This document shows, one piece after another, positions 872-53,471 of a stretch of DNA of 54,236 nt. The stretch lies in IMG/VR virus record IMGVR_UViG_3300019877_000084, positions 1 through 54,236 of that record. The stretch is one strand, 5' to 3'. Within the stretch, counting starts at the first letter, position 1, and every line of letters begins with the position of its first letter. The notes under the pieces were generated by a model. It worked only from the letters and a program-made list of their open reading frames with translations, was not told the DNA's origin and did not search any database. The stretch comes from a virus (taxonomy: Duplodnaviria; Caudoviricetes). The position numbers and the translations under genes were made by a program.

Positions 872-1605
872 TGATTTATTTGGATATAGAAACATGTTCC
901 GGATTCAAGGACTACTATTTAGCGGACAAACGTACACAAGACCTTTGGTATTTGAAATTCCGTCACTTGGTCTTAGAGGCTCTGGCGAAAAACCCTATAA
1001 TAAACGAGTCTGAGTTTGTGAATGTGATGTACAAAGATAAAGCGGCATTGTATTCTGAATTCAATAAAATTGTTTGCGTGTCATTAGGTATGGTGGTCCA
1101 GGATAAGGAGACAAAGACTGACAAGCTGCACATTAAATCCTCATCTAGCGATAATGAAATTGATATTCTCCGGGATATAGCCACAGCCATAAAGAGTGCG
1201 GATACCTTGGTGGGACATAATGGAAAGGCTTTTGACTTTCCCATGCTATCGCGTAAATATCTTATACACGGCCTCCAATTGCCTGTATTACTTCAAAACT
1301 CGGGACGTAAGCCGTGGGAGGTGCCCCTGATCGATACCCAAGAAATGTGGAAGTTCGGAGATCTGCGATATACCGTATCTTTAGATCAACTCGCGATGGT
1401 GTTCAATCTCCCTTCCCCTAAGGCGAACATGCACGGCTCCCAGGTGTCAGAATATTATTACGCTGGGCGCCTGAAGGAAATAGTCCAGTATTGTGAGTTA
1501 GATGTAGCAACTTTGATAAACGTCCACCGTAAGATGATTGGTCAGCCAATTGTCACAGAGTTACACGGTGGAGAGCCAGAGAAACAGGAGGAACTATTCA
1601 AATAA
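868..1605 (+). CDS. PolB-like DEDD 3'-5' exonuclease (stand-alone)
   Basis: ExoI YLDIET, ExoII GHNGKAFDFPML, ExoIII YCELDV; start moved to ATG 868, which overlaps the upstream stop. Confidence 0.85.
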   Translation: MMIYLDIETCSGFKDYYLADKRTQDLWYLKFRHLVLEALAKNPIINESEFVNVMYKDKAALYSEFNKIVCVSLGMVVQDKETKTDKLHIKSSSSDNEIDILRDIATAIKSADTLVGHNGKAFDFPMLSRKYLIHGLQLPVLLQNSGRKPWEVPLIDTQEMWKFGDLRYTVSLDQLAMVFNLPSPKANMHGSQVSEYYYAGRLKEIVQYCELDVATLINVHRKMIGQPIVTELHGGEPEKQEELFK

Positions 1606-1626
1606 TCAAAATTATTTGGTAGGCAA

Positions 1627-1887
1627 ATGGAGATCACCAGAAAACAATATTTGGAGGCAAAGAAGATGGTAGAAGAGTACCAAATTAGACAATATCAAAG
1701 AGCCCTAAAAGAATTAAAGCCAGTCAGACTTTCAAAATATGGAAGGGAAATGCAGACGCCTCATAACAAAACAGGTGTAGTTATTCATAGGCGTCTTGCT
1801 GGAATGACGGACTATACAGTAGAAGTTCTATGGGAAGATGGCAAAAGAGAAGAGATGGACGAAAGTCAAACTGAAATCATAAAATGA
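1627..1887 (+). CDS. hypothetical protein (possible SH3-like C-terminus)
   Basis: co-oriented ORF; GVVI...VEVLWEDG pattern; ATGA coupling to next gene. Confidence 0.65.
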   Translation: MEITRKQYLEAKKMVEEYQIRQYQRALKELKPVRLSKYGREMQTPHNKTGVVIHRRLAGMTDYTVEVLWEDGKREEMDESQTEIIK

Positions 1888-2075
1888 AACGCTTCGAACG
1901 CAGCATTAAAGTGTTGCAAGCTGAAATGCACCGGATAACCGGGAAGGAAGTGTTTAATTACGTTGAGAACAATAGAAAAATGGATCTCAACTATACAACC
2001 AAGGGTATAATGGTGCAAAGTCTCGCTAAAGCTATCAAAATTTTGGATGAACATCCAGACAATAAGTACGTATGA
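1884..2075 (+). CDS. hypothetical protein
   Basis: ATGA overlaps on both sides. Confidence 0.6.
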   Translation: MKRFERSIKVLQAEMHRITGKEVFNYVENNRKMDLNYTTKGIMVQSLAKAIKILDEHPDNKYV

Positions 2076-2227
2076 CCCGCTTCCTCTTTTACCGTATTGC
2101 CTTGTCTTACCTGGTTGTGCCCTGGTGGGTGATGTTTATAATCGTTTGCCTGTTAGGCTTAGGCGTGGCCTTAGCTGTTTTTTGTCTTATAACTTACTTC
2201 ATATCTCAAACCTTTAGTTATGCCTGA
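2072..2227 (+). CDS. small hydrophobic membrane protein (51 aa, not in ORF track)
   Basis: manual translation MTRFLFYRIALSYLVVPWWVMFIIVCLLGLGVALAVFCLITYFISQTFSYA; ATGA overlap upstream; fills the gap to groES. Confidence 0.55.
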   Translation: MTRFLFYRIALSYLVVPWWVMFIIVCLLGLGVALAVFCLITYFISQTFSYA

Positions 2228-2654
2228 AATAAATTTTAATTGTCCTTTACAGCCAGTTGGTGATAGGATTATTGTTCAACAAGATGCGGCTGAAGAAGTT
2301 ACCAAGGGGGGGTTGATTATACCCGACACAGCCCAGGAAAAACCACAATTTGCGACTATTATCCGTGTTGGTGCCGGCAGGGGTATTGACAACGACATCC
2401 TTAAAATGCTTACCTCTTTGATTAAGGGTTTACGTTGGATAATTTCAAAACTTGGCCTCGATACTGATGTCATTCGTCAATGGTGCGATGAACACTTGCC
2501 TTTGAATGAAAAATCGGTGATAATTTATAAGCCAGGGATGCGAGTCTTGATTGGACGTTATGCTGGAACCGAGATCGAGTACAAAGAAGTCAAGTACCTT
2601 ATGATTAGAATGTCTGACATTGCCGCTATTGTAGAAGAAGATGGGATACAGTGA
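2220..2654 (+). CDS. groES: GroES co-chaperonin with ~40-aa insertion
   Basis: LQPVGDRIIVQ, EEVTKGGLIIPDTAQEKPQ mobile loop, GRYAGTEIEY...YLMIRMSDIAAIV. Confidence 0.9.
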   Translation: MPEINFNCPLQPVGDRIIVQQDAAEEVTKGGLIIPDTAQEKPQFATIIRVGAGRGIDNDILKMLTSLIKGLRWIISKLGLDTDVIRQWCDEHLPLNEKSVIIYKPGMRVLIGRYAGTEIEYKEVKYLMIRMSDIAAIVEEDGIQ

Positions 2655-3153
2655 TCCAGCAAAACAGCGGGAGTATCAGCGCAAATGGATGGCAAATAAA
2701 TTGGCTACCAAAAAACAAGACCCGGAAGCTCATAAACGTCATCTTGCGACAAGAAAAGCTTGGAGGGAACTGAACAAGGAACGCTTAAAACAAAAAGAAA
2801 TAGAATACAAGGCAAGTCCCTCATACAAAGAAAAGAAGCGTAAATGGGCTCAGACCTACAGAGACCGGAATCGTGAAAAACTTGTTGACAGCAACAGAGA
2901 ATATCGACAACGCCTTAAATCACTTGATCCCGTGATCCCAGTATCAAATAAAGCCGCTATCGATAAAGTGGTTTTTAGAAAAAGGGATGAAGAAAAAAAG
3001 CATGCCGAGCGCCATAAGAAAAGACAATCCAAAAGAGATAAAATGCTTAATTGCTCTCATCAATCAGGATTCACATTTGAGCCCCATCTATTAGGCGGAG
3101 TGGTCCGAAAATGCAAAATTTGTGGAAAAAAATTCAGACAAATAGGGAGATGA
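2641..3153 (+). CDS. basic helical protein with C-terminal Zn-binding motif
   Basis: K/R-rich REYQRKW-type repeats; CSH...CKICG. Confidence 0.65.
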   Translation: MGYSDPAKQREYQRKWMANKLATKKQDPEAHKRHLATRKAWRELNKERLKQKEIEYKASPSYKEKKRKWAQTYRDRNREKLVDSNREYRQRLKSLDPVIPVSNKAAIDKVVFRKRDEEKKHAERHKKRQSKRDKMLNCSHQSGFTFEPHLLGGVVRKCKICGKKFRQIGR

Positions 3154-3180
3154 TACGTCAACTTAACTGGAGGCAACCCT

Positions 3181-6100
3181 TCAATTCAGCACATTACTAA
3201 AACTTTCCTGCTGAACCCTCAATATTTCCTTGCGCTTTCGGTTCCAGTCATCTGGCTTTATGTTGCCTTCACGGGTTAATCTGTCCCCAAGTTCTTTCCA
3301 GAAATTAAACTGCTCCTGACTTAGGCGCCGCCTACTGAGTTCGGTATATAGTTTGTAGAATGCAACCTTGGTACGCCATTCCTGTGTGGATAAATCAGTT
3401 ACAAACCTCCGGACCACTGGCATTTTGTTGTAGTCTATTTGTTGCTTGTCAATGACATTGTACATCTGGTCACCAAGTTTATACCAAGACTTCAATCCGC
3501 CTAAGGTATAATCCATTCCATATTCCATTGTTGCTGGACTGATCTCCAGTACATCGTCATTGCCTTGGAATGTTTCGCTTAGTATCCCCGATAGTTTAAT
3601 GAAGGGTTTGTCCGTGGACTTGAAATAGAGTTCAGAGTCTTTTTGATACAAGTGTTTCTTCTCCGGATAAATAGGCTGTTGGTTATAGAACTTTTCGTTT
3701 TGAGATAATTCTACGAGTGGCTGCACAATGGATGGGTAAAAATTGTTCTCTGCCATGGGAAATATGCCATTCATGAAATTCTTAAAAACATAACCTATGG
3801 CTTGGCCATAATCTTTGTTATTCCGGTATAGGTCATATAAAGCATCGCCTACGGCTTTAAATGGACGGATGTTGTAGGCAACCGGAACCGTAACTACCTG
3901 GTGTTTGGACCACGGTGCCCACAGAACGAAATTTTTGTTGTGGTCGGATTCCGTGAGTAACTTCTTTAAGTCGTCATCGTCGTCGGCTAAGGCGTCCAGC
4001 AAGAATCTATTGGCAATCTGTCCAATAATTAATCCCACCATCATAGCCCGTACCTTGGGGCTCTTGATTAAGGCCGTCATCATTTGGTTAGCGCCCTGGA
4101 TGCCGGCATTAGCAAATAACCACGCCATGTTCAGAAAAGGACCCCAAGAACCTTTCTTATTGAAGTTTACGGTTACATTCTTTGCAGCTTTTGCAGCTTT
4201 GTGTCGTGATACGCCAGCTTCTCTAAGGTTCACATAAGTACTTAGGCGAATGGCTTGTTCTGTTACTTTATTGATTAGGACCACTCCACGCATGACCTTC
4301 CGTGTGGGATACAGCATTACATTGCCAAGACGTTGTGCTGGATTCAGTGTCTTGAATCTATCAATCTCCTGTTCGACTTCTTTCAGAATTTCTTCGTGAC
4401 CAGCTACATCAAGCCAACTAATCTCTCCTCCTTCTGCTTTCATCTCATCCATGTACTGAGAATACATGGGGTCTGGCTTTCCTTTACCGATGTTCTTTTT
4501 GAAAATTGTAGACATCGCCGTAGGTATCCCGCCTATGACACTGCGACCGATCTTCTTGACTTCAAGTGATTGAAGATTCACAGCTGCGTCCTGGATATCA
4601 CGGACTAAATTGGGGAGAGGAAAATCAAGGTTTAATCCGATGTATGTAGCGCGTTGATAGTTTTGAATAGATCGAATAACCTGCATTGTGCTGATAACCC
4701 ACTTTTTAGTAGGCCGTGGCTTTTTATCCACAAATACCTCTCTCAGATCCGGATCTTTAAGCCAGATGAAATATTGCTTTCCTCCAATCCTTACACCTAC
4801 AGATTCTTTCTCGATGGCTCGTTTTTCTTCAGGCGAAGTAAAATCCTGAACCACGGTTTTGATTTCGCCTACGTCGTTACCTTCTTCTTCCTGTCCCTCT
4901 TGAACTACTTCAGTGACTACTTTTTTAGGCCGAATGATCTTCCACACTTGTTCATTAGGATGTTGCACTACAAGTTTGTGGAACTTCTTCATGACTTCAT
5001 TAGACTCTACTTTTGCTATAGTGGCTTCATAGTTATTGATCAGGTGAACAATTGGATTCACCCGGTCCCAATACTTGTTTTGTTCTGAACCGTGACTGGC
5101 TTTTATTCCGGTGCCAAATATGCCTTTACTCAGTTGGCCCTGCTGTCCTCCTTTTTGATACTGTTGGACTTTTAATGGCACATAATTGGCATAATAATTC
5201 AATAACTGATTATAATCCTTCTGGTTAATGATGCCGGCTTGATGTTGGAAATTCAGGGGCTCAACTACAAGTTTCTCCCGGATCTCAGCGGCAAAAGTTT
5301 TTAAGTCGTCTTCTTTGCCACTTTTCTTTATTTCAACCAAGAATACATTTGCCTCGGTATCCGTCATCCCGGAACCCGCCTGGGTCTCCCCCTTGGTTAG
5401 TTTACGGTTGTATTCATTGCGCTCCAGGCTATGAACTACCTGCATATAAAACCCTAGGTCTAAAAGCGTTAATCCTTTGGCTTGGACGCGACCAGCAAAA
5501 CTATTGGGATCCAATACGTTATTACCCTTAAAAGTCGTTGCCTTGGTTAAAAACTCCATTATAGATCCGTATCCACTTTCTGAAGTAGTCTCCCCAAATA
5601 ACCATTTGCGCATGCTCTTGATCTGATACTCAGCCTTGCCGGTCATCAAATCCATAAGCCCATGTATGTCTTTGGTATCTCCTATTAGGCGCTCGGTCAG
5701 CATATTCCTGCTGGCCTTTAGTTCTTTACTGAATTGTTTTTTAGTCTCCTTGGAGGCAGTTAGTTTGTCGATCTCGTCCTGCGCCTTAGCGATGTAGGAA
5801 TCCACGATTTCGTTTTGGACTTCGTGCATTGTGCGCGTCCAGTCCTGGGTAGTACTGAGAAACGAGCTCATAATTATCTGCCGGAGGCTCTTTACTCCCC
5901 GTGTCCAGGTCTCAGGCGCCAGATTCAGAATTCTATCGGCTTCTACACGCTTATTCCAGTCTTCCCAGGCTTCTGAACTCATTTTGAATCCTTTTAGGCG
6001 GAAACTGGCAGTTTCTGGAAGATGGAGATTTGATATCCGGCCTATCTCGCCTGGTGTCATAAGTTCGCGGGCTGCCATTAAAACCAAGTCATTAAGAGTC

Positions 6101-9100
6101 ATTGTACTCATGTCGACGTTCTGCTTGATCCCCAGCCGCTGTTTTAGGCGTGACCATAGGTCGGTCCAGAATCGACGCCATGCCGATTTATCCGCAATCC
6201 CTGCCCCTTTCTCGCCAATGGCTATAACTACGGCCTCATCGGATTTCTCTGCTTCTGAGAGGCTGGAATAGGCTGGATTGGCGTCTACCTCTTCCTTGTA
6301 CTTAGATCCTTTGATTAGACGTTGTCCAGCGGCATACAGGACCGGATATTTATGCCGGACGATATTCCACCATAAATGGCCGAATTCGTGGATAACCGTG
6401 TCCAACCTAACTGTTTCTGGGTTCAGGTAGATTTTATCTCCGTAGATGAATCCGTTGGGGATACCACCGGTAGGATTTTGGGCGAAGAATTCTGGTAATT
6501 CTCCTTTTGTGAATGGTGGCACTTTTGCCCGTTCTTCGGCATTGAATTCTGACCGTTCTTCGGCTTTTCTTGATTCGAGTTCCTCATGCTGATCTCGGTA
6601 TTCTTCGAATGCTTGACGCCTAAGCTGGATATCAGTGATTGGATTGCGGCCCGTTTCTTTGGCAAGTCGATTAAGAATTTCATCAAATCCTCGTCCAGCA
6701 GAAAGTCCGGCGGTTCGCTGTAACTGATGTTGCAACTCATGTAAAACCTTGCCTTTGAGATATGTTCTACGCTCATTTTCGTTTTTATTATTTGTGAAGT
6801 ACTTATCGATGTTTATAAAAATTGTATTGCTTTCATGTTGGTAAGCGGCATTAGGATGTCCTTTTTCTGGGCCGGAAAAAAATCTAACTTTTGTATCTTT
6901 AGCTTCTGGTACTAAATTAAAGAATTCTGGGTAATCAATAACTTCTGATAATTTAAGATCATTTTCAGTGTTAATTTCCCACTCTTCATTGTCAGGAGAC
7001 TCAGATGTATTTTTCTTAGCCTTTATCAGATGAGTATCCCCAATTTTTATTTTAGCTTTTGACCCATCAAGTTCATATCTCCATTTACCATCTTTATACT
7101 TAAACCAGCCTGTTTTTTGCCAAATTTCAAAAGGTTTAGATCCCTTGCGGTCCATTGCCTCGGCTTGACTCAACTTACTTGCCATCTCAGGCGTGATTTT
7201 ATTGCCCGGACTAGCAAAACTTGCAAACATCCCACTTCCGCGATTCAAAAAATCCTGCCATGCCTGTTGAACTCGCTTACGATCGGTTACGACTTCTGAA
7301 ATACCGGGAAATTTGCTCATTAGGCGCCGTACCAGTGCTTTCAATTGGATCTGACCTATACGCTTAGACGCGGTTTCCACTTGTTTGACCGTGCGGCCAT
7401 CAAAGCGTTGGCCAGCAAATTGTGCCTGTGGATTCTTTCCTTCGACGGATTCCAGTAATTTTTCGACTTCAGGCCGGGCTGAATTATTGAATAGGTATCG
7501 CTGTGTCTTTTTATCCCAAATCCCTCCTAAGGCCACAATACGGTTCTTGATCGAATAGGTATCGCCTGTGACCGCAAATTGGTCTTTGCCCACATTCCTT
7601 AGGCGTGTGGTGATTGGCAGTGTACTATCGGTGTTCTCCGGAAGCCCTTTGTCTACAAAGACTTTCTGAAACGCCTCTTTGGCTTTAAGTCCTTTTGATG
7701 GTCCGATGAACATATCACCTTCCTTGTCAGCCATGTAGGCCGCTACCTCTTTGATTTTACCCAAGATCTCACCCTGCTTCTTGGTGTCAAATAGCCGAAT
7801 CAGATTCAATTCCTCAGGCGAGTAGATCTGTTTAGGCGAAAGGCCGTCGTTGAATATGTCGGCTTGATTCTCCCATACATTCAGGTCGTCCATTCCCGAA
7901 TTCTGAAACTCGCGGTAGCCCACCAAGGCGTTGTTCATGGTCTTATTCAGGCCCTTGGTACGGATGATCGCAGGTATAGCCTTATCTATTCCTTTTTGAA
8001 CCGAGTCTGGTAGGTGTTCGAAGATCTCCGCCAGATTGGTGTCTCCGCCTTCAAACATCATGTGCCGGAACACCCGGGCTAAGTCTTCAACGCCTTCTTT
8101 ATTGATTTCGCCCGTCCTGGGGTTGTGAACGGTTTCAAGCTGCGTTTCCGTGATTGCACCCCTCTTGTACAAAATGTCCAGAATTTTGTCAGTATTGGCA
8201 CGTATGATTTCAGATAAGGTCTCTCCTTCACTTTGGGCTATGGTGTTTGCAAGTTTTGTCCTGTCCTCAGGCGTGAGCTTGTTAACGGTGTGTACCGGTT
8301 CAATTCTGCGCTTGCCCCCGGTTTCAATGTCTGAAGCTGTGTACTGCCCCAATTCAATAGCGCGGGCATCACCGGCCTTGACCATGCGGGTCAGCACCGG
8401 ATTCTTCATTGCCGCTACCTTTACGGGATCTAACCCAAACTTCTCCGCATTTTTGACAAGATACTCTTTATAGCCTGCCGGGTCTTTTTCTTGGTTGTTT
8501 GCCCAATACTGTTGCAGGGCATCGGCCCTAGCATTGCCTTGGATTACTTCTCCACGCGAGTTGACCGTAGGTGCGCCCGAATACGGATTGGGGCTCTCTC
8601 CCACTTTTGTTGGATCCAATTTGGCAGCAATGTCTTGTGCTCCTTTGACCCCGGCCTGACCGAAAGCCTGATCGCGTGATTTTGGCTGACTTTCAGGTAA
8701 AAAGTGTAATGGATTTTTGATGCCCTTTTTGTGGCTAGGCTGGATTTTGTCAGCCTCGATAACCGCATATTCACCTTCTTCATTGACTTTGTTTGCAAAT
8801 TCAAGTTTTACAGGACCTCCTTTTACTACTTGGTCGCCTTCAAGTGGAGCTTGACGTTCGTATGTTACTCCGTCTTTGATGAGCTTACCTTCTTTACGGG
8901 CTTTCTCAGGGGTTTGATCTTCCTTAGGCGCTGGTGTTTCAATGTAGTCTTTGATCTTAGCTAATTCCTCTGGAGACATAGAATCCAAATGCTCTTTGCC
9001 GGTGAGCTCTTTGGACTTGTCCATGAATTCCTTGGATTCGTAATCAATGCCCGCTTTTTTGGCAGCGGTATGAATATCCTTGGGGGTGATAGGAGTTGGT

Positions 9101-41258: not shown

Positions 41259-41261
41259 AAC

Positions 41262-41759: not shown

Positions 41760-41761
41760 AA

Positions 41762-42118: not shown

Positions 42119-42121
42119 AAC

Positions 42122-44796: not shown

Positions 44797-44798
44797 AT

Positions 44799-45392: not shown

Positions 45393-45406
45393 GTCTACAA
45401 ATTAAA

Positions 45407-45525
45407 AGAACCTCCGCCGAATCTTCTCACCCAGGGATAAGCTAGGCTCAAAAATCCAACGAAGGTTCTACTAACAAAATTTCTTTTCTCTGCCTTATCC
45501 ACAGTGACCACGTATTGAAGTGGTC
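45407..45525 (-). ncRNA. structured cis-regulatory leader (19-bp stem plus pseudoknot)
   Basis: 45469-45451 pairs with 45425-45407 (5 G-U pairs); loop CUUAUCC (45441-35) complements upstream GGAUAAG (45500-494); 5' hairpin GACCAC/GUGGUC. Confidence 0.6.
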
Positions 45526-45585
45526 CTGCGAACTAAAGCAAAATAGTTTGAAGTTCCTAACTTTATTTATTCTCAGGCGCGAACT

Positions 45586-45852
45586 TCAAACCAGAACCGC
45601 GTAGAATGCTTCAATATTGCACGTAAAGGTTCGTTGCTTCTGTTCTCCACCAGTGGAGTAGCCATGACCATTTGCGGTAATTTTTATCATTGCGGTGTCT
45701 CCGTTTCCAAAATTCTCTTTTACAAGTGCTACCATGTGAGGTAATGCCGAATCATATTCGGCCTTGGATTGATCTGCTAACTTTGCACTGTTGGCCTCAA
45801 GGGCTTCAGCTACTTTTTCAGGTTTACCAATTAATGTAATTGACCAGCTCAT
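45586..45852 (-). CDS. hypothetical protein
   Basis: ORF with A-rich start; MSWS N-terminus. Confidence 0.65.
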   Translation of the reverse strand: MSWSITLIGKPEKVAEALEANSAKLADQSKAEYDSALPHMVALVKENFGNGDTAMIKITANGHGYSTGGEQKQRTFTCNIEAFYAVLV

Positions 45853-45864
45853 AATTTTGTTTGT

Positions 45865-46059
45865 TTAAGTTGTTAAGATTATTTTTTCTGCGTCTCGTTC
45901 TGATTGAATCGACTTTAAAATAAATTCTCGTCTAACTTCCTCCATGTGCTTATTGATTGCACGGATAGCAGTAAAATCATATGGCGTATTCATTACCCGC
46001 ACCTTGCCCTCGGCTTTTAGTTTTGCAATAATGTCGGATCTGTGGTCAATTACTGTCAT
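45865..46059 (-). CDS. hypothetical protein
   Basis: ATGA overlap with the portal stop. Confidence 0.55.
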   Translation of the reverse strand: MTVIDHRSDIIAKLKAEGKVRVMNTPYDFTAIRAINKHMEEVRREFILKSIQSERDAEKIILTT

Positions 46060-48476
46060 GCCACTACCGCTTCCTTTTTCTTTGCCTTTGCGGCTTCGGC
46101 TTGGATCTCTGCGACCTTTAGATCTACATGGCCTTTAAGCTCAGTATCAGTGAGTTTGGCAACTAATTCCTCCTGCTTTTCATCGAGTGACGCCTTAGCC
46201 TGGATACGTGCAATAATAACATCCCATGACGCTCCATGGTCTTTAATTTTGATTGCCATCTCGGCGTCAAAAGCTGCTTTTTCTTTATATGCCTCGACGT
46301 CCATCATCATTGATCGTTGTTTCTCTTGTTCAATAGCAAGAGCGGTTTGCTTGTTGCCTTCGGCTTGGGCATTCATAGATTCTATATTGCGTTGCTGTGC
46401 TTCGGCTTCGCGTTGCATTCTCTTTTGTGACAGAAGTTGATAAGCTCTGTAAATATTTTTTTCGTTCTCAATTATGAAAGCATCTTCTGGCAGGATACCA
46501 CTTGGATTCTCAGGCGTCCTCAGCGCCGATGCAATAAATCCTCTCAGAACTTGTCTTACTTCGTCTGAAATTCCAGCATCTACACTCAATGCAAAATCCA
46601 TGAGTGAAAAATTACGGTTATCCAACATGAAGTCGTGCGCATCTTTACCCAATGCGGTTTCTTTACCGGCACTACGTCCTCTGCCTTCGGCATCGGGGAC
46701 AAGCATGCACACTTTTTTAGCCGTGTTTTCGTACAGGTTTATGAAGGCGTGATAAAGGTCTCCAAGTGCGTTGTCGGTGTTAGAAATAGCGATTTCCGCT
46801 AGTTTTTTGCCCATTTCCGGGTCTGGATTACTGGCATCGGTGGCGTCATTCAGTCCTAAAATATTGCGCAACATCTCTATGTCGGAGATAATAAACTGAA
46901 GATATTTTTCAGCGGCATCACTAATGCCTCCACTTAATTCTTCAATGGGCTTGAATGGATATGGGCGACCGTGTTGATCTGTTCCGACGTAAATAAATGA
47001 TCCGGTTTCGGCATACATTTGCAAGATGTCATCAATCTCTAATTTACGAGTACCGACTTGCACCGCCGCAAGAGCACGGCGTTCAATTGCAATACCTCTG
47101 GGTTTCGCCTGAGACAATTGATGTTGAAAGTTCAACCAGTTTATTTGGATGTTATGTAGTAATGGTTCACACTGTCTCATGTAAGAGTCGAAACCAGTGG
47201 TGTACATCGTGGTACCTAGCTTACAGTCATTGATAGAATTAATAGCTCTGATCATATTGGACTGCCGGCCATAGTCATAAATGTAATCGGTCCCCACTAT
47301 CCAGTTGCCCTGGTAGACATTATTTACTGTGTCGCGAATAATCTCACGTTTCTCTCCACGTTCTTTATAGAAGCTGACGTACTCCTGATCGGTCAAACCT
47401 TTCTTGTCCAGCCAGTATGGATTGTCACGCTTTGAAAAGCTGGTGTTGCCGTCACTATTTTGTCCCATTACATAGGCGGCGTCATCAGCACTATACCATT
47501 CAGCCATGAGCACAGTGACTTTTTCGTGATCCCATTCATACCGTAGGTGATCAGACATATATTTCTGCGCATAAATAGCACTATAGGTTTTATGACTCGC
47601 CCTGGTGGCAATGTCAGCCAACTCTTTATCAGTGAATGTACCCTTTGGTACAGAGGCGCGAAGCTCTGACATCGTCATTTGGACGTATTCGCCTACACGA
47701 ATCAAGTCACTGAAATCATTGTGTATACAGGGGTTACATATAGTTTGTTCAGGTATGCGTTTATGTATGCGTATCCGGCCTAAATTGTCGATGTACGCCC
47801 TGGTAGAAGTCACACCTACGTCGATGAGGTCATCAAGTATTTCGTCCTCCATTTGTTTCCAGTCCGACTGTAAAAAACTCATGTCGATCTGATCGAGCAT
47901 GTACATGATGTATTTGTTTTTGGGATACATCTGCATGTACATCTGGATCTGATTGCTGTTCTCAGGCGCCGGTTCCCCTTTTTCAAAAGGTGATTTGGAT
48001 TTATACCCCGTAACACTTTCCTCCATCGCGGAATGGAATTCCCGGTTGATCAGGTGCTCCATGATTTGGGCATAACGTACTCCATCTTGTTCAATAGAAG
48101 TGGCATCAATAGCCGACAATATGATCTCTCTTGGAAGTTTTTTCAGGCGATTCTTGATTACTTTTTTGAAACGTGGAAATATTGGAAGGATTGACCAGTC
48201 TAGATTCTTCCAGCTTTGATCTCGCTTTCCATGACGTTTCTTCACGCCTAATTGATCCTTATATTGATCTATCGGCTGGTTGCCCGCAGCCAGGAGTCTC
48301 CAGTCCAGATATTGCTGGTAAGCCCAGCGCAATATCTGGCTGTTACCCGTAGTGAACTCACGGTCGAATGCCTTTATGTACTGAAGGCACCACTTCTTAT
48401 TTTTTTGAGTCGATGGAATTTGATGGGAAGGAAACCCATAATTCTGACCTGGCTCTGACTTAGGTGTTGTTCCCAT
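46056..48476 (-). CDS. portal protein (crAss-like)
   Basis: 806 aa directly after terminase; FPSH...K...W; NLDWSILPIFPRF; GLNDATDASNP; coiled-coil C-terminus. Confidence 0.8.
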   Translation of the reverse strand: MGTTPKSEPGQNYGFPSHQIPSTQKNKKWCLQYIKAFDREFTTGNSQILRWAYQQYLDWRLLAAGNQPIDQYKDQLGVKKRHGKRDQSWKNLDWSILPIFPRFKKVIKNRLKKLPREIILSAIDATSIEQDGVRYAQIMEHLINREFHSAMEESVTGYKSKSPFEKGEPAPENSNQIQMYMQMYPKNKYIMYMLDQIDMSFLQSDWKQMEDEILDDLIDVGVTSTRAYIDNLGRIRIHKRIPEQTICNPCIHNDFSDLIRVGEYVQMTMSELRASVPKGTFTDKELADIATRASHKTYSAIYAQKYMSDHLRYEWDHEKVTVLMAEWYSADDAAYVMGQNSDGNTSFSKRDNPYWLDKKGLTDQEYVSFYKERGEKREIIRDTVNNVYQGNWIVGTDYIYDYGRQSNMIRAINSINDCKLGTTMYTTGFDSYMRQCEPLLHNIQINWLNFQHQLSQAKPRGIAIERRALAAVQVGTRKLEIDDILQMYAETGSFIYVGTDQHGRPYPFKPIEELSGGISDAAEKYLQFIISDIEMLRNILGLNDATDASNPDPEMGKKLAEIAISNTDNALGDLYHAFINLYENTAKKVCMLVPDAEGRGRSAGKETALGKDAHDFMLDNRNFSLMDFALSVDAGISDEVRQVLRGFIASALRTPENPSGILPEDAFIIENEKNIYRAYQLLSQKRMQREAEAQQRNIESMNAQAEGNKQTALAIEQEKQRSMMMDVEAYKEKAAFDAEMAIKIKDHGASWDVIIARIQAKASLDEKQEELVAKLTDTELKGHVDLKVAEIQAEAAKAKKKEAVVA

Positions 48477-50761
48477 TACGCGCTTTGTTTACTTCTGACT
48501 CCGTCCTGATTATACATTGGAAATACTATTCCGATATCGGTGTTGTCTTCATCTGCTACAAATTCCTTCACGTTAGCCTCAGCGGCTAATATCGCAAAAT
48601 AGGCGGCTACAACAGCATCGAACTTTGTCCGGTCTTTGATACGGAAGGCAATCATTTGCTTGACAAGATTAGGAAATAGCAACCGGTGGCCATCATGCAG
48701 CACTATAGAGACTAAGCGTTGGATACCAGCACTCACGACATCGTCTACACTCGACAATGCCTTGTAGGCGTCACTCAATGTATCGCTTTGTTTAATGACG
48801 TTCTTATCGAAGTCGCCTTTAAATAAAATAAATTGTCCATAGCCTCGTCCTTCAAGGTACTGCCGTAAATTATTGACATTGTCTTCAGCATTTATCGAAC
48901 ATCCAAAGTACCGGATCGCCTTAATAATATCTTCCCCAAACATGGAGAATTCATCGGGACGATTGAAGTATTCCGCTATGAAATTAGCGCTCTTCCAATC
49001 CTTTCTGGCTTTGCCCATATCTAAATTAGGATCAAACATGCTCCAGATATAACATGCTGCTTTTGAGGCTCTTGGGTCATCGGTTTTAACCCATCTAATG
49101 GGGTCAGAGCCCGCTCGAAACAACTTATTATTCTTAGGAAAGAATATTTTTTTTGTTTCCCCGGTCGTGGGGTCTGAATAGTAATCAAATCCAACACGGT
49201 TCGCCTGACGGGTATCACTATCCAATGATGGTGCATCTACATCTAAGGCGCGACCCAGGCTCCATCTCCCCCCTTTGTCATTCCGAATGAATTCAACATC
49301 GCCATCTACTATACCGCCTACCCATTCAAAGTTTCCGTTAACAAAAGGATATCCACGACCAGACTCGAGAATTTCAAGACAATTGATAAGGATCTCGGTA
49401 TTAAACGGACTCTCACCGGTGGCCATCATCTTGGCTTCATCCCAACTCATGGGATACTTCCTGACCTCTTCGGTATAGAGTTGGAAAGATTTCAACTTCT
49501 TAGGCGCCCGCTCCTTCATGATGATACTCTTTGAGCCCTCAAATATCCGGATGCCCTTCTCGCTGATCACTACTTCATTCGGCGCTGGGTCATCAATTAC
49601 CGAGCGACCGTACTCGTCGAACAATATTCCTTCTGCCGCACTGATGAATAAACTGATTAGTCCACTAGTGGTTTTATGGTTCTCATTTATTTTCATCGAC
49701 GACGGCTTACCATGCTCGAACATCTCAATAAATTTTTCACCACCGCTATCCAGGTCTTCAATAGTCGTAGGCGCAAATATGAATCCTATTTTTTCAAATC
49801 CGTCCCGAGTAGAAGGAATGACTACCCGGAGGGTCTGATACACATCTACCTTTTCCCACTTACCAGGTTCTTCCATGGAATAGTTATGCAGCTTATATCC
49901 GTCATAAGATGTGGTCTTGGTTTCACGGTAGTCAATGATATTATTCAATGCTCCCGTGTCGTCGTCTTCATCGACATCCATGAGTTGAGTCTTGCCCTTG
50001 GCTACATATTTGACGAATCTTACCTCACTTTGTTGACTGGATCCGTAGTCAAAAGCGGCCGGTTTGAAGAACGGTGGCTGATTGCGCCATCCATATAGGA
50101 ACGATTCCCGGAACTTGTCTTCTGCATCCTGGCGGGTTTGCGCCTGAAGGCCGGCCCGGTGGTTGGGTTTGAAACTCTGGTCATACCAGAGATTGTGCAT
50201 AGAAATAGATGTTTTTCCGAAGCGTCGACATGTACTCAGGGCGACGCCATGCACGAGTTGGTGATCTTTGGCATACTGTATACACCAAAACACCTTCATA
50301 AGTACCATGCGTAGAAGAGGATATCCAAAGTCCTGTTTCCACCAGTTAAAGTAGTCGTATGCCTGGCCAGTGAGGTAGACGTATTCCGTGGGCTTTCCAT
50401 TCCGGTTTCCTATCGCTACCCAAACCCCGTTTACTTTTCTATTCCATTCCTGTAGGCGGAACTGGTCGGCAAGTATATTGGTGTAATGTTTGTTCTGGTA
50501 CTTTCCTTTTTTTTCGTCCACCATCCATTTTTTCCAATCCGGAGGCAATGGTGTGCGTTCCCATTTCTGGGCTTCAATTGGTAGGTGTTCGCCTAATATT
50601 TCACATTTAACGAGTTCATAGGTGGGTTTTCCTGTTTTTAGATCTGGAATTCGGTCTATAGTATAGCCAACCGGCGGTAGTTGTACCGTGATTACCTCAT
50701 CATCCCAGCAGATATCTACCGCGGTGCCTCCTGGGATTGGGTTGACAAGGCTATTTTTCAT
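48476..50761 (-). CDS. terL: terminase large subunit
   Basis: Walker A CRRFGKTS, SYDG.KL...MEEPGKW Walker B, nuclease AGSDP, EY..RP, INAEDN, KFDAVVA. Confidence 0.9.
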   Translation of the reverse strand: MKNSLVNPIPGGTAVDICWDDEVITVQLPPVGYTIDRIPDLKTGKPTYELVKCEILGEHLPIEAQKWERTPLPPDWKKWMVDEKKGKYQNKHYTNILADQFRLQEWNRKVNGVWVAIGNRNGKPTEYVYLTGQAYDYFNWWKQDFGYPLLRMVLMKVFWCIQYAKDHQLVHGVALSTCRRFGKTSISMHNLWYDQSFKPNHRAGLQAQTRQDAEDKFRESFLYGWRNQPPFFKPAAFDYGSSQQSEVRFVKYVAKGKTQLMDVDEDDDTGALNNIIDYRETKTTSYDGYKLHNYSMEEPGKWEKVDVYQTLRVVIPSTRDGFEKIGFIFAPTTIEDLDSGGEKFIEMFEHGKPSSMKINENHKTTSGLISLFISAAEGILFDEYGRSVIDDPAPNEVVISEKGIRIFEGSKSIIMKERAPKKLKSFQLYTEEVRKYPMSWDEAKMMATGESPFNTEILINCLEILESGRGYPFVNGNFEWVGGIVDGDVEFIRNDKGGRWSLGRALDVDAPSLDSDTRQANRVGFDYYSDPTTGETKKIFFPKNNKLFRAGSDPIRWVKTDDPRASKAACYIWSMFDPNLDMGKARKDWKSANFIAEYFNRPDEFSMFGEDIIKAIRYFGCSINAEDNVNNLRQYLEGRGYGQFILFKGDFDKNVIKQSDTLSDAYKALSSVDDVVSAGIQRLVSIVLHDGHRLLFPNLVKQMIAFRIKDRTKFDAVVAAYFAILAAEANVKEFVADEDNTDIGIVFPMYNQDGVRSKQSA

Positions 50762-51387
50762 TCGGCTGCCTCGATGACACCGGCAAAGTTCTCTGGACTA
50801 AGGAACCTGGAACGGATGGCCACGTCTTTTACATCTTCATTATCGCCAAATACCTCTTTTTCAATGGAATCAAGTTGTTTATGGATGTCCTGACATTGAA
50901 CTCTGAGCTTTGATTTCAGTTCTGCTGATTTGAAAACATCGATTTCTTCAATGTCTTCTTCCCCTCCTTTTTTGCTCTTAGCTGTGGTGATGGGGTCTAG
51001 TCTCAGGCGAGTGTATTCGTCGAGCTCCTGTGATAACGTCACCCATTCTCGGTACTTTCGGTTGTGAAATACTTGAGTAAGGAGAACAAATAAGAATTCC
51101 AGTGTGGTTTTATCCCTGAGTTCAAATATTTCAGTGAGGTAATCGCTTTCTTTTTCGAAACCAGCGAGTTCTGCCGCCCGAACCTTGCGCTTGTCTAATT
51201 CAGTAATCTCTTTTCGTAAATCGCTTTCGGGGTCGTACATAAACAACAAATACCGAAGGAGTAAATTTTTCTGAGGCGCCTTAGATTTGTCCAGTACTTT
51301 AAATCGACTTAGTTCCGGAAAGGCTTCCAGTACATCTTTATCAGGCGATAGGTTAAATACATTGAATTTCAGTTTCTGGAATCTCAT
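50758..51387 (-). CDS. hypothetical protein, candidate terminase small subunit
   Basis: immediately upstream of and overlapping terL; helical. Confidence 0.55.
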   Translation of the reverse strand: MRFQKLKFNVFNLSPDKDVLEAFPELSRFKVLDKSKAPQKNLLLRYLLFMYDPESDLRKEITELDKRKVRAAELAGFEKESDYLTEIFELRDKTTLEFLFVLLTQVFHNRKYREWVTLSQELDEYTRLRLDPITTAKSKKGGEEDIEEIDVFKSAELKSKLRVQCQDIHKQLDSIEKEVFGDNEDVKDVAIRSRFLSPENFAGVIEAAE

Positions 51388-51388
51388 T

Positions 51389-51643
51389 TTATTTTATGGC
51401 CACCAGCGAATGTGGTTTGATGATGAATAAAAACTGTCCATTGACCTCAATGCCGTTGTCCTGGTATTTGTAGAACAGGATGACGTCACCGACGTTGATC
51501 TTGCCTTCCGGACCCATTGCTATCACCACGCCTAAGAGAGATTCTTGGTTTTTACGCTGAAACACCGGTGGAACATACACTTTACCTTCTTCTGCCGGCA
51601 GCGGGTGGACGAAAATATTGTCCTCAGTGGCGATGATTTTCAT
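51389..51643 (-). CDS. GroES-like co-chaperonin (compact)
   Basis: DNIFVHP...VYVP...GVVIAMGP...INVGDVILF...IEVNGQFLFII...LVAI. Confidence 0.75.
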   Translation of the reverse strand: MKIIATEDNIFVHPLPAEEGKVYVPPVFQRKNQESLLGVVIAMGPEGKINVGDVILFYKYQDNGIEVNGQFLFIIKPHSLVAIK

Positions 51644-51747: not shown

Positions 51748-51972
51748 ATGGCTACATACCGATATAAAAGTTCTGAACCAGGTCCAAAAAAGACACCATT
51801 GAAAGAACGGATTCAGTCCGCTTATCCAAAAACCACACTGGAATCCAGAATCATGACAAAGCCCGCTACTGAGGCGCCTAAGAAGAAACCAACCTGGAAA
51901 TCTTATGGTAGTGTTCCTGTAGGCGGTGCTGGTGGGAAAGCAAAACTTTTACAAGCAGGAGGAAAATTCTAA
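51748..51972 (+). CDS. small basic protein
   Basis: K-rich ORF; TAATG coupling to next gene. Confidence 0.55.
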   Translation: MATYRYKSSEPGPKKTPLKERIQSAYPKTTLESRIMTKPATEAPKKKPTWKSYGSVPVGGAGGKAKLLQAGGKF

Positions 51973-52334: not shown

Positions 52335-52405
52335 CGCAGGGTAGATTAATGGTAGATCATTGGGCCCATAACCCAACCGTGAGGGTTCAACTCCCTTCCC
52401 TGCTA
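52335..52405 (+). tRNA. initiator tRNA-fMet (CAT)
   Basis: cloverleaf: acceptor CGCAGGG/CCCTGCT with C1:U72 mismatch, A11:U24, anticodon stem TTGGG/CCCAA (3 G-C), loop CC-CAT-AA, T-loop TTCAACT; no encoded CCA; TAACTTTA promoter-like element at 52324. Confidence 0.85.
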
Positions 52406-52411
52406 CTAAAT

Positions 52412-52442: not shown

Positions 52443-52461
52443 CGTGGCAAAAAAATGCTTT

Positions 52462-52878
52462 TCAGGCTGTAGGTGTTGCCTCGATGTCGGTTTTAGCTGC
52501 GTCCAGAGCCGTGTTGGTCTGATCCAACGTGTCTGCAATTGGTTGCAGGGCCTCAGGCGTGATGGTTCCGCCCGCGTCAATGATTGCTTGAAGGTCCGCA
52601 ATCGTCTTTTCAAACGCTGCCACTGCTGTTCCAATAGCTGCCTGAACAGCATCAATGGAGGTTTGTAATGCGCTTGCTTTGGCTAATGAAGCATCAGCCT
52701 TGTCTTGAAGTTCTTTTAAGGTTGCCATAATGGTTTTTTGGTTTTGTTCGAGTTGATTTATTTTTTCAAGTTCTTTTTCGTGATGCTTAATCATTAATTC
52801 CTTCAGTTCATGGAAATGATGATCCTCATGCCGATGAGGTCTGCGCTTGGGCTTGCGCTTTGAAAGTTTCTTAGCCAT
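52462..52878 (-). CDS. coiled-coil protein (alternative internal start at 52728)
   Basis: basic His-rich leader then Ala-rich heptads; the second ATG has an A-rich initiation context. Confidence 0.65.
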   Translation of the reverse strand: MAKKLSKRKPKRRPHRHEDHHFHELKELMIKHHEKELEKINQLEQNQKTIMATLKELQDKADASLAKASALQTSIDAVQAAIGTAVAAFEKTIADLQAIIDAGGTITPEALQPIADTLDQTNTALDAAKTDIEATPTA

Positions 52879-52880
52879 TG

Positions 52881-53066
52881 TTAGCGCCTAATAGGAGCAT
52901 TGAAATTCATACCATCAAATGCTCCAATAAGAGAGAGCAAATATATGACAAGAAGAATTCCAACCACAACCCTCACCCAAGTTTGGTAAGGCTGAGGAAT
53001 CTGACCCGTCACCCAAAAGATGACAGCAACGATAATGATAAGAATTAAAACTCCAAGAAGTGTCAT
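52881..53066 (-). CDS. small 2-TM membrane protein (Thivi_2564-like)
   Basis: LILIIIVAVIFW...IPQPY...VVVGILLVIYLLSLIG. Confidence 0.65.
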   Translation of the reverse strand: MTLLGVLILIIIVAVIFWVTGQIPQPYQTWVRVVVGILLVIYLLSLIGAFDGMNFNAPIRR

Positions 53067-53077
53067 GGCCTATTGGT

Positions 53078-53260
53078 TTATTGATGATCTCTGTTTGCGG
53101 ACTCTTGACCTGGTTCCGGGGTTGGATCAGCAACTTCCTTAGGCGCTTCGGCCTCAGGTTCCGGGGTTACTATCTTCTTGGCTACTGGTCTCGCCTTAGA
53201 AATGGGCTTGGTGGCCTTTTTGATAGCCTTTTTAGGGGCTGACTTCTTTTTATGCTTCAT
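53078..53260 (-). CDS. small K/P-rich (histone H1-like) protein
   Basis: MKHKKKSAPKKAIKKATKP...PEPEAEAPKE. Confidence 0.55.
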   Translation of the reverse strand: MKHKKKSAPKKAIKKATKPISKARPVAKKIVTPEPEAEAPKEVADPTPEPGQESANRDHQ

Positions 53261-53339
53261 ACCGGGTATGCAACAATAATTATACCCCGCCAATTTATGA
53301 TATTTTCGAATATTTATGAAACCGGGTGGGAAAATTACT

Positions 53340-53471
53340 CTACGTACGGTAGACCGGAGGACCGTAAACCAGCAGTCTCAGGCGTTCAATGGTCATCGCC
53401 TGAGTAGGCTTGGGCTCAAAAGAATGGCTGATAGGTATGGATAAGAGCAATACAAAAATGATTTTTTTCAT
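53340..53471 (-). CDS. small protein with signal-peptide-like N-terminus (43 aa, not in ORF track)
   Basis: MKKIIFVLLLSIPISHSFEPKPTQAMTIERLRLLVYGPPVYRT; perfect TACCTTTG -7 element at 53478-53485. Confidence 0.45.
   Translation of the reverse strand: MKKIIFVLLLSIPISHSFEPKPTQAMTIERLRLLVYGPPVYRT

Follow-up and report, generated by a model that had tools for sequence, protein, structure and literature searches.

This report concerns a short DNA word, CGCCTRA (TYAGGCG on the complementary strand), which is dispersed through the IMG/VR virus record IMGVR_UViG_3300019877_000084 (Duplodnaviria; Caudoviricetes) and which is probably a positively selected, direction-sensitive cis-acting signal. The record is a linear sequence of 54,236 bp with a CheckV completeness estimate of 54%, it belongs to a tailed phage, and it was analysed over its whole length, hereafter called the window. 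The word is about ten-fold over-represented, it is written mainly through silent codon choices, it prefers one DNA strand whatever the direction of the genes, it follows a regional pattern and it is restricted to one lineage among the phages compared. No description of the word (searched as CGCCTRA, TYAGGCG, CGCCTRAG, CTYAGGCG, CGCCTDA and CGCCTNA) or of a comparably dense polar phage word was found in the literature, the search lying outside supplements and REBASE. Among the functions that can be proposed, a polar signal of the Chi kind, addressed to a recombination nuclease of the host, is discussed here as a tentative reading.

Abundance of the word and the phages that carry it

Exact counting gives 83 copies of CGCCTRA in the window, 28 on the '+' strand and 55 on the '-' strand. 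In 100 dinucleotide shuffles of the window, whose guanine + cytosine (GC) content is 42.6%, the mean was 8.56 ± 3.01 copies and the maximum 17, and none of the shuffles reached 83; the observed/expected ratio (O/E) is about 10 and the density 1.5 per kb. The first-pass annotation of this DNA, made from the letters alone, had reported the over-representation with estimates of about 42% GC and roughly 9 expected copies, which agree with these values; its 55 positions of TYAGGCG on the '+' strand are all exact, whereas its 27 copies of CGCCTRA on the same strand are one fewer than the actual 28 and its total was about 82. The 83 copies are followed on their 3' side by G (47 copies), A (21), T (13) or C (2), so the statement that most copies extend to CGCCTRAR (68 copies) also holds, and other flanking positions carry no information. 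The consensus is a non-palindromic word of 7-8 nt, CGCCT[A/G>T]A[G>A], and the family consists of CGCCTAA (45), CGCCTGA (38), CGCCTTA (22), CGCCTAC (19) and CGCCTCA (8), with no CGCCTAG; when CGCCTTA is included there are 105 copies.

Under an order-3 Markov model the two top 8-mers of the window are CGCCTAAG (22 vs 1.2 expected) and CGCCTGAG (25 vs 1.5 expected), and the z score of the word is 15-19. Under maximal-order models the top 5-mer is CGCCT (174 vs 103.6) and the top 6-mer CGCCTA (72 vs 43.8). Because the maximal-order signal sits in these sub-words, a fifth-order model, which had been proposed at first pass as a check, absorbs most of the 7-mer excess, as is to be expected, and the excess is then seen in the sub-words at the head of their lists. 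The copies are not evenly spaced, and the filled sites are a random subset of the places where synonymous codons would allow the word. Close pairs are only a handful (AGGCGCCT occurs twice), too few for a paired or dimeric site to be the unit of the word.

Three relatives were compared with the window, counts being set against the reversed pattern as control. G002 (68,332 bp; large terminase, TerL, 61% identical) has 70 copies, mostly CGCCTGA, vs 8 of the control, whereas G001 (68,688 bp with direct terminal repeats; TerL 57%) has 12 vs 11 and G003 (TerL 43%) has 12 vs 16. Among 45 further IMG/VR loci of at least 12 kb the enrichment appears only at the G002 locus, none of 55 metagenome loci of at least 10 kb is enriched, and neither is the Flavobacterium phage elemoA or the Maribacter phage Panino. 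The first-pass annotation had set against its own claim the chance that the word is equally frequent in unrelated Bacteroidota phages and hosts; in related Bacteroidota phages the word is infrequent.

In 15 orthologue pairs with G002, 8 of 40 aligned motif windows (CGCCTDA class) are identical, compared with 593 of 18,205 other 7-nt windows (3.3%). In the same comparison with G001 none of 39 motif windows is identical, compared with 539 of 17,841 others; the peptide is often retained in G001 (SPET, TPKI, SPKE) but differently encoded. The proteins of the window and G002 are only about 40-60% identical, yet the word is common to both. Judged from these alignments, the word is old in the window-plus-G002 lineage, is partly maintained site by site and is absent from the equally distant sister G001. 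The distribution looks host-linked, because two phages so distant from each other share the word while a third at equal distance keeps none of it. Common to the window and G002 only are the N-terminal part of an initiator protein, a mobile HNH gene, a receiver-domain protein, residues 58-501 of a giant protein and a fibre fragment; none of the genes exclusive to these two phages has a predicted function that fits the word.

TerL-like proteins 82-88% identical to that of the window are present in Logan assemblies (P0002-P0004), and megablast of positions 28000-48000 gave no near-identical cultured phage. G003 is classed as a provirus, and a relative with a TerL of 43% identity sits in a contig of 186,311 bp (L136); this branch may be temperate, and the flanks of such contigs could name a host.

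Other phages of the comparison have exceptional words of their own. G005 (L130-L132, 54,096 bp, TerL 28%) has a dispersed asymmetric word, CYCCCGAACTG, whose core CCCGAAC occurs 39 times vs 3.6 expected (26 on '+', 13 on '-'), fills 17-20% of the silent opportunities, has 12 non-coding copies, many of them before small early open reading frames (ORFs), and is found also in L193. As an analogue it was set aside, being dispersed but weaker, with one third of its copies intergenic. Likewise, CGCTGGC of G001 is weak and not polar, and the motifs of G004 and G006 are tandem or clustered coding repeats; in G004, 60-nt tandem repeats (29-450, 64516-64900 and 72333-72450), probably coding, explain the exceptional 8-mers. 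In Panino (L216, PP540027.1:1-50000), CACTATCA occurs 23 times vs 1.9 expected and CCACAGC 23 times vs 4.0.

Selection on the DNA

The window was divided by our own calls into 53 ORFs, with 95.1% of the sequence coding. Within the ORFs the word occurs in five of the six frames, the sixth being closed by the stop codon inside the word: the sense copies lie in frame 0 (f0, 15 copies), f1 (33) and f2 (2, at stop codons), the antisense copies in f0 (12), f1 (2) and f2 (10), and 9 copies are non-coding. These assignments bear out the first-pass description of a word found in several frames, on both strands and in intergenic gaps (13229, 19505 and 45573), and overlapping stop codons at 12491, 18257 and 44799.

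Against 75 copies observed in ORFs, synonymous shuffling gave 11.0 ± 3.2, synonymous shuffling with the codon-junction dinucleotides kept gave 18.0 ± 3.5 and codon permutation gave 7.4 ± 2.7 (300 shuffles each). The excess also survives a codon-pair-preserving Euler shuffle, the dicodon check that had been asked for at first pass: this procedure retains the word's own dicodon footprint and gave 42.9 ± 3.9 with a maximum of 53 in 200 shuffles. In addition, antisense copies taken alone number 24 where the shuffles give 5.9, an enrichment of about 4-fold, and the 2,663 bases of non-coding DNA contain 9 copies (6 on '-', 3 on '+') where about 0.4 would be expected, a 21-fold excess.

An opportunity is defined here as any place where a choice among synonymous codons, with the encoded peptide unchanged, could write the word. 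The window fills 48 of its 97 sense and 24 of its 147 antisense opportunities, and G002 fills 34 of 105 and 27 of 114; the corresponding figures are 5 of 91 and 6 of 147 in G001, and 5 of 103 and 6 of 112 in G003. Counted by strand, the window fills 47 of 96 opportunities on '-', vs about 5% in G001 and G003. The four phages offer similar numbers of opportunities, so it is silent sites alone, and not the proteins, that have been adapted to the word.

It was considered whether protein composition, codon usage or codon-pair usage could by itself produce the excess, and 33 of the 83 copies do encode S/T/A/P-P-K/E/N/D in one frame. However, none of the four shuffles reproduces the excess, the word stands in five frames and in non-coding DNA, and the relatives with equal numbers of sense opportunities (91-105) fill 5% of them; the explanation is refuted by these comparisons and deserves practically no credence. 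Selection that acts on the DNA and not on the protein, as the first-pass annotation had argued, is supported by the shuffles, by the non-coding excess and by relatives that encode the same peptides with other codons.

CGCCTAA also lies 5-20 nt upstream of seven start codons (12485, 13216, 16848, 18254, 19500, 20154 and 53133), where it often furnishes the stop codon of the preceding ORF. This could be a second, translational use of the word at gene junctions, or it could be the word squeezed into very short spacers.

Strand preference and regional pattern

The 83 copies span positions 1468-53403 and fall into two domains. From 2159 to 31728 the word stands mainly in one orientation (35 copies on '-', 5 on '+'), whereas from 32837 to 53403 both orientations are used (22 on '+', 20 on '-'). 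In terms of opportunities, the '+' orientation fills 19 of 54 in 32-54.3 kb vs 6 of 94 elsewhere (p=1.5e-5), while the '-' orientation fills 0.38-0.59 of its opportunities per segment, except in 20.7-28.55 kb (1 of 5). The two-orientation domain holds the capsid gene, sugar genes, a replication module with the origin (ori), the portal and the terminase. An 8.3-kb stretch of tail-fibre-like ORFs, 20175-28438, is free of copies; it offers five '-' opportunities, of which one is used, at 28439, and 0 of 35 '+' opportunities are filled. A recent horizontal transfer is not needed to explain it, because opportunities in the favoured orientation are few there and the '+' orientation is unselected outside 32-54 kb.

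Nearly all ORFs of the window from 3181 onward lie on the '-' strand, and G002, which has genes on both strands, serves to separate strand from sense. In its genes on '-', the word fills 32 of 84 opportunities on '-' and 18 of 92 on '+' (Fisher p=0.008), and in its genes on '+' it fills 9 of 22 on '-' and 2 of 21 on '+' (Fisher p=0.034), the numbers being small and the ORFs being our own calls. It is thus the DNA strand, and not the sense of the gene, that the orientation preference follows. In the syntenic part of G002 the '+' orientation shows the same regional trend (11 of 43 vs 9 of 70, p=0.13). Compositional skew does not explain the bias, because the C-rich form of the word sits on the G-rich strand. 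Nor does the orientation switch at ori: to its left (32-44.4 kb) 13 copies are on '+' and 9 on '-', to its right (44.4-54 kb) 9 are on '+' and 11 on '-'. The word is thus strand-polar independently of gene direction, and a polarity that ignores transcription units most likely means a reader that moves along DNA or sees one strand.

This behaviour bears on a transcription-linked element, that is, on stoperator-like repressor sites or on pause or anti-termination signals on the non-template strand. Such an element would agree with the window, where about half of the sense opportunities are filled and far fewer of the antisense ones (48/97 vs 24/147), and with the copies before seven start codons in the structural operon. 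But the '+' genes of G002 keep the '-' strand preference (2 of 21 sense vs 9 of 22 antisense), the antisense copies are enriched in their own right, and most copies lie deep inside ORFs, which makes a transcriptional role very improbable. An orientation with transcription, as in stoperators, is likewise contradicted by the G002 counts.

A by-product of mutational or biased-repair drive, such as very-short-patch repair or a spread like that of HIP1, without benefit to the phage, has about as little to recommend it. The excess at silent and non-coding positions and the random choice of filled sites are what such a drive would leave, and candidate enzymes are a C5 methyltransferase in G002 and an MmcB-like PD-(D/E)XK nuclease in the window (39809-40450, '-'). 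However, each of these enzymes is in only one of the two motif-bearing phages; no one-step neighbour of the word has been wiped out, CGTCTRA occurring 9 times in the window and 5 in G002 vs 8 in G001 and 12 in G003, and the neighbours as a whole are only slightly fewer; moreover, a duplex-based drive would yield neither strand polarity nor a regional second orientation.

Replication or packaging signals deserve more weight, although they too are unlikely. The word could be a lagging-strand priming site, with CGCCT copied and the next bases cryptic as in GGGTC of T7, or a word for terminase recognition or loading. A polarity along the whole genome fits unidirectional replication or packaging, the window encodes a Toprim primase-helicase (42401-44143, '-'), and the initiator N-terminal part and identical ori iterons are common to the window and G002 only. 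A 209-aa protein of the window, encoded immediately before TerL, is also closer to its counterpart in G002 (65% identity) than to that in G001 (49%); having no family match, it is at most a candidate small terminase, which counts against the packaging form of the proposal. Known headful phages, furthermore, make do with one pac site. As for priming, G002 has the word and no homologue of the primase-helicase, having a DnaB-type helicase instead, and elemoA, with a primase-helicase and replication-protein module, has no exceptional word (top z about 5-6). A primase site of the T7 gp4 type was rejected because the cognate primase is missing from G002 and the orientation does not switch, as it should at a bidirectional origin.

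An equally doubtful proposal is a duplex binding or modification site: a site where a ParB-like protein loads or coats DNA, a sequence methylated by a phage or host enzyme or modified at its bases in some other way, or a mark or decoy for BREX or Type IIG/III systems, candidates which the first-pass annotation had put forward. The word is a short asymmetric site of the size that such enzymes read, and it is, as restriction and BREX targets are, asymmetric and within 5-7 nt; the ddrB-ParB domain seen at first pass in the giant protein of the window is confirmed (Pfam, aa 741-873); G002 encodes a C5 cytosine methyltransferase; and the window has a sugar and methyl-transfer cluster at 34605-38353. 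On the other hand, duplex binders and methyltransferases need no genome-wide strand polarity. The ParB link fails in particular, because G002 has the same enrichment although its giant protein has no Pfam family and aligns only at aa 58-501, so that the ParB domain is not common to both (this absence rests on the giant protein, not all small G002 ORFs having been scanned). A parS site, too, is a roughly 16-bp palindrome with few copies near parB, and the word is an asymmetric 7-mer in 83 dispersed copies. No DNA methyltransferase was found in the window, from which about a fifth or more of the genome is missing, and the glycosyl/methyl-transferase ORF of the cluster is also in the motif-free G001. 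Phages normally avoid restriction targets rather than raise them ten-fold, and a BREX or Type IIG/III target would be expected to be avoided or in a single orientation, contrary to the ten-fold excess and to the two orientations in 32-54 kb.

A Chi-like signal as the tentative reading

The strand polarity of the word, being independent of gene direction, makes a Chi-like signal the best-fitting of the candidates listed at first pass; the HIP1-like half of the same suggestion falls away, since the word is non-palindromic. Known Chi sites share a short non-palindromic core with a degenerate extension, and the word has this build, with an invariant 5-base core CGCCT/AGGCG and a degenerate extension. 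It is possible, though by no means the probable outcome, that the word is a polar signal of this kind for a host enzyme of the AddAB/RecBCD type. We infer the identity of the reader, the part played by DNA ends and the host from the patterns described above.

In such a mechanism CGCCTRA(G) / (C)TYAGGCG would be a cis-acting DNA signal that strong positive selection has multiplied in the lineage, mostly by choice among synonymous codons. The free ends of the injected genome or of replication or packaging concatemers would admit a host helicase-nuclease (AddAB/RecBCD kind), which would meet a correctly oriented copy within a few hundred bases and would then stop degradation. Phage DNA would thereby be protected and recombination allowed, and fewer fragments would be left for CRISPR or Argonaute acquisition. 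Ends that the enzyme always reaches from one side, for example rolling-circle tails, would be guarded by the '-' copies present throughout the genome, and the extra '+' copies at 32-54 kb, the region of terminase, portal and ori, would guard the other side where virion ends fall. If protection is needed within hundreds of bases and not kilobases, this could explain the density. A related version, to which a slightly lower probability is assigned, takes the dense strand-polar heptamer as a phage 'self' barcode read by a DNA translocase, either the host AddAB-type nuclease or some phage or defence motor, the density having evolved to stop degradation within a few hundred bases and to starve CRISPR or Argonaute.

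There is precedent. Among lambdoid, T5-like and P1-like phages, those that lack RecBCD inhibitors carry the host Chi in excess, with O/E of about 2.4-4.8 (PMC3784561). PMC2887965 describes a functional AddAB in Bacteroides, the Chi of which was unknown in 2010.

Several findings weigh against the Chi-like reading. None of 413 Bacteroidota genomes (401 evenly drawn, with the family of 12 genomes around the best of them) approaches the density in the phage, and no host was found; likewise without such density are five metagenome-assembled genomes with distant TerL relatives and the top five genomes for the 7-mer. The best genome, G193, has the 8-mer at 146 per Mb vs 867 per Mb in the window. Examined over 396 kb, it is mildly exceptional (CGCCTAAG 37 vs 12.2; CGCCTGA 109 vs 67.3) and barely skewed (101 vs 74 by sign of GC skew), and with so weak an enrichment and so little skew it was dropped as a host-like genome. 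The host search is a failure to find and not an exclusion, since the reversed pattern that served as its control is crude and a host Chi may be only 2-3-fold enriched. Furthermore, the word, with an O/E of about 10 and 1.5 copies per kb, greatly exceeds what PMC3784561 gives for Chi in coliphages (about 0.2 per kb), the spacing is no more even than a random choice among opportunities, G002 has its own RecT and YqaJ-type exonuclease, and the window and G002 avoid different palindromes, so that they may come from different host strains.

The consequences differ with the reading. If the word is Chi-like, it would be a candidate Chi for a Bacteroidota AddAB, which PMC2887965 (2010) gives as unknown at that date, and a phage of virulent type would be seen to mimic the 'self' marks of its host far more densely than they occur in any bacterial genome. 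If the self barcode with an AddAB reader is true, this would be the first Chi sequence for a Bacteroidota lineage, one discovered by way of a phage. If it is otherwise, the word is still among the strongest cases of silent-site selection on a DNA word in a virus, with about 50% of opportunities filled vs 5% in sister phages. In addition, the window and G002 on one side and their word-free close relatives G001 and G003 on the other make a testable contrast set, and a cis-signal that shapes codon usage in such phages has to be reckoned with in recoding and in k-mer host prediction.

Positions of the copies

The 83 copies found by exact search are given here from left to right with our ORF calls, A form standing for CGCCTAA and G form for CGCCTGA. 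ORFs are on the '-' strand unless marked otherwise, so that sense copies in them are on '-' and antisense copies on '+'. The series begins with a G form at 1468-1474 ('+'; sense f0, ORF 844-1605(+)), a non-coding A form at 2159-2165 ('-') and an A form at 3091-3097 ('-'; antisense f0, ORF 2641-3153(+)). The giant-protein ORF 3181-10998 has sense A forms in f0 at 3321-3327, 4242-4248, 5685-5691, 5994-6000, 6144-6150, 7320-7326 and 7599-7605 and in f1 at 7832-7838 and 8924-8930, sense G forms in f1 at 4829-4835, 5912-5918, 7187-7193, 7814-7820, 8267-8273 and 10616-10622, and antisense A forms at 3498-3504 (f0) and 6617-6623 (f1).

ORF 10995-12485 has a sense A form at 11974-11980 (f1), and 9 nt before its start lies the A form 12491-12497 ('-'), the TAA of which is the stop codon of ORF 12491-13216; the latter ORF also has an A form at 12766-12772 (sense f0) and a G form at 12839-12845 (antisense f2). 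A non-coding A form at 13229-13235 ('-') occupies the 20-nt spacer 13217-13236. ORF 13237-16848 follows with an A form at 15260-15266 and a G form at 16529-16535 (both sense f1), and ORF 16852-17637 with an A form at 16862-16868 (sense f1), a G form at 16963-16969 (antisense f2) and a G form at 17432-17438 (sense f1); the copies at 16529 and 16862 have the same aligned place in G002. A G form lies at 17713-17719 (sense f1, ORF 17634-18254). The A form 18257-18263 ('-') gives its TAA as stop codon to ORF 18257-18901, inside which another A form stands at 18822-18828 (sense f1). The non-coding A form 19505-19511 ('-') is just upstream of ORF 18907-19500, and the A form 20168-20174 (sense f1, ORF 20158-20673) is the last before the copy-free stretch.

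Beyond this stretch come a G form at 28439-28445 (sense f0, ORF 23970-28550), A forms at 29424-29430 (sense f0) and 29849-29855 (sense f1) in ORF 28531-30150, a G form at 30437-30443 (antisense f2) and an A form at 30468-30474 (sense f1) in ORF 30155-30835, and an A form at 31722-31728 (sense f0, ORF 30913-31878). The two-orientation domain opens with a G form at 32837-32843 (antisense f2, ORF 31934-33301). ORF 33326-34531 has sense f1 copies at 33381-33387 (A form), 33747-33753 (G form) and 33984-33990 (A form) and antisense G forms at 34352-34358 (f2) and 34516-34522 (f0). A forms at 35077-35083 (sense f1) and 35126-35132 (antisense f0) lie in ORF 34605-35294, a G form at 35791-35797 (antisense f0) in ORF 35297-35938, and A forms at 36862-36868 (antisense f0) and 37536-37542 (sense f1) with a G form at 37740-37746 (sense f1) in ORF 36680-38353. 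ORF 39094-39741 has A forms at 39435-39441 (antisense f0) and 39635-39641 (sense f1), ORF 39809-40450 a G form at 40432-40438 (antisense f0), and a non-coding G form is at 40564-40570 ('+'). Three antisense G forms, at 40869-40875 (f2), 41056-41062 (f1) and 41172-41178 (f2), lie in ORF 40716-41258; they are followed by A forms at 41578-41584 (sense f1, ORF 41262-41759) and 41947-41953 (antisense f0, ORF 41762-42118), a G form at 43110-43116 (sense f1, ORF 42401-44143) and an A form at 44799-44805 (sense f0, ORF 44140-44841), the TAA of which is also the stop codon of the overlapping ORF 44799-45392.

A non-coding G form is at 45573-45579 ('-'). Runs X2 and X3 contain short fragments of relatives; as an anecdote from the same place, in X2, another soil run, a close relative swaps, at the joint 45543-46067, 523 nt for 29 letters, again with TTAGGCG. 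In ORF 46056-48476 there are G forms at 46510-46516 (sense f1), 47106-47112 (antisense f2), 47962-47968 (sense f1) and 48143-48149 (sense f0) and an A form at 48245-48251 (antisense f0); in ORF 48476-50761, G forms at 49202-49208 and 50141-50147 (both antisense f2) and A forms at 49500-49506 (sense f1) and 50590-50596 (antisense f0); and in ORF 50758-51387, G forms at 51003-51009 (sense f0) and 51341-51347 (sense f1). Those at 47962, 48143, 51003 and 51341 have the same aligned place in G002. The remaining copies are A forms at 51529-51535 (antisense f0, ORF 51389-51643) and 51875-51881 ('+'; sense f1, ORF 51748-51972(+)), a G form at 52553-52559 (sense f1, ORF 52462-52878), and non-coding copies at 52885-52891 (A form, '+'), 53139-53145 (A form, '-'), 53378-53384 (G form, '-') and 53397-53403 (G form, '+'), the last two forming an inverted pair with 12 nt between the copies.

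Gene content and the class of host

The left end of the window encodes an HNH endonuclease (206-871), a 3'-5' exonuclease (844-1605, '+') and a GroES-like ORF (2220-2654), after which the '-' strand ORF 3181-10998 encodes a polyvalent giant protein of 2,605 aa with the Pfam domains ddrB-ParB, LPD23 (1273-1317) and LPD38 (2348-2528); for its residues 58-501, shared with G002, the ESM Atlas gave only unnamed viral clusters. The window also encodes virion proteins and tail-fibre-like ORFs. Inside the structural gene block lies a stand-alone response-regulator receiver domain protein (19551-19919; G002 64545-65009), present only in the two word-bearing phages. The 1,526-aa ORF 23970-28550 ('-') has no PHROG match; its aa 299-358 match the Pfam family of the heat-labile enterotoxin A chain, which has an ADP-ribosyltransferase fold, at a score under the threshold (E=7.7e-4, 19.6 bits vs the 21-bit cut-off). 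The sugar and methyl-transfer cluster consists of a GT2 glycosyltransferase, a short-chain dehydrogenase and a hexapeptide acyltransferase (35920-36555), none of them with a homologue in G001-G003, and also of a glycosyltransferase-methyltransferase fusion. The acyltransferase, searched as a possibly host-derived gene, was found in 0 of the 401 Bacteroidota genomes at E<=1e-20.

Further to the right are a lambda-O-like initiator (44140-44841, '-'), the portal (46056-48476, '-'), the large terminase (48476-50761, '-') and a tRNA-Met (CAT) gene (52335-52406, '+'). Inside the initiator gene, at 44406-44488, there are four iterons TCGGATTTTTTTCCGA(GT) of 16-18 nt, the 18-nt form being TCGGATTTTTTTCCGAGT, with the four copies 20-23 nt apart. 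The same iterons lie in the initiator gene of G002 (14221-14301), exact at 14221, 14244 and 14286 and with a fourth copy starting at 14266, and they are absent from G001 and G003. This array is the likely origin of replication; the word was rejected as a binding site of the initiator, ori having its own different iterons. Near the right end, a non-coding gap of 371 nt (53134-53504) contains three copies of the word, two of them as the inverted pair CTCAGGCG-N12-CGCCTGAG (53377-53404). At about 2 kb from the terminase genes, the gap separates an unassigned 72-aa ORF (52915-53133) from a conserved ORF (53505-54215) with a sub-threshold Cpn10 match.

Flavobacterium, Tenacibaculum and Maribacter belong to the Bacteroidota, and Cellulophaga is a member of the Flavobacteriaceae in the same phylum. 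Bacteroidota-type hosts are likely for the window, because Shine-Dalgarno-like motifs precede only 6 of 51 ORFs, the leaders are A-rich (40% A), and a TerL match (26-28% identity) occurs in 87 phage records of GenBank, all but one of which (86) are from Flavobacterium, Cellulophaga, Tenacibaculum or Maribacter.

With respect to other short sequences, the palindrome TACCGGTA occurs 7 times in the window (9583, 10723, 15987, 16202, 18443, 42070 and 42859) vs about 0.5 expected under an order-1 model. Whereas G002 strongly avoids the tetramer CCGG (48 vs 124), the window does not (233 vs 191); G002 is also almost devoid of TGATCA (0 vs 24.6), GATATC (1 vs 15.5) and CTGCAG (1 vs 17.5), and the window avoids AAGCTT, ATGCAT, CTGCAG and CTTAAG. 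The C5 cytosine DNA methyltransferase, RecT and YqaJ-type exonuclease of G002 are encoded at L098:9364-10917 and L100:2815-6157.

Comparison with known systems

Cluster A mycobacteriophages such as L5 have stoperators, dozens of dispersed asymmetric sites with a preferred orientation. Unlike the word, which has 7-8 bp, is mostly intragenic and is oriented with the DNA strand, stoperators have 13 bp, are mostly intergenic and are oriented with transcription. HIP1 of cyanobacteria and cyanophages is a highly iterated octamer in host-adapted phages; it is, however, palindromic and abundant in the host, whereas the word is not its own complement. T7-type primase sites consist of a copied part followed by non-copied base(s) and are used on one strand. 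They are not known as over-represented words, and, as noted above, the primase is lacking in G002 and present without such a word in elemoA. GGGTC, TGGTC and similar template words are examples of such sites (PMC2910064, PMC5517523).

The remaining systems are closer to the word. Like Chi, the word is short, non-palindromic, biased in orientation, over-represented and lineage-specific, and it occurs in coding DNA in several frames; Chi in phages can also exceed the copies predicted by composition, according to PMC3784561. Unlike Chi in coliphages, with O/E of about 2-5, the word carries both orientations through a whole 22-kb domain, is several times denser and was found in no host at a comparable density. 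In the case of FtsK-orienting sequences (KOPS), the oligomers are polar, skewed and over-represented and are read by a DNA translocase. But KOPS are sparse and flip at dif and at the origin, while the word keeps one orientation through the record, its '-' copies filling a similar share of opportunities in nearly every segment, and flips nowhere, so that identity with KOPS was rejected. DNA uptake sequences (Neisseria DUS, Haemophilus USS) occur at about 1 per kb on both strands and within genes in several frames, and in all these respects the word is comparable. They are, however, 9-12-mers shared with the whole genome of a competent host, a host which was not found here, and we know of no use of uptake signals by a phage. 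The word is therefore best filed as an over-represented polar oligomer, together with Chi, KOPS and the uptake sequences.

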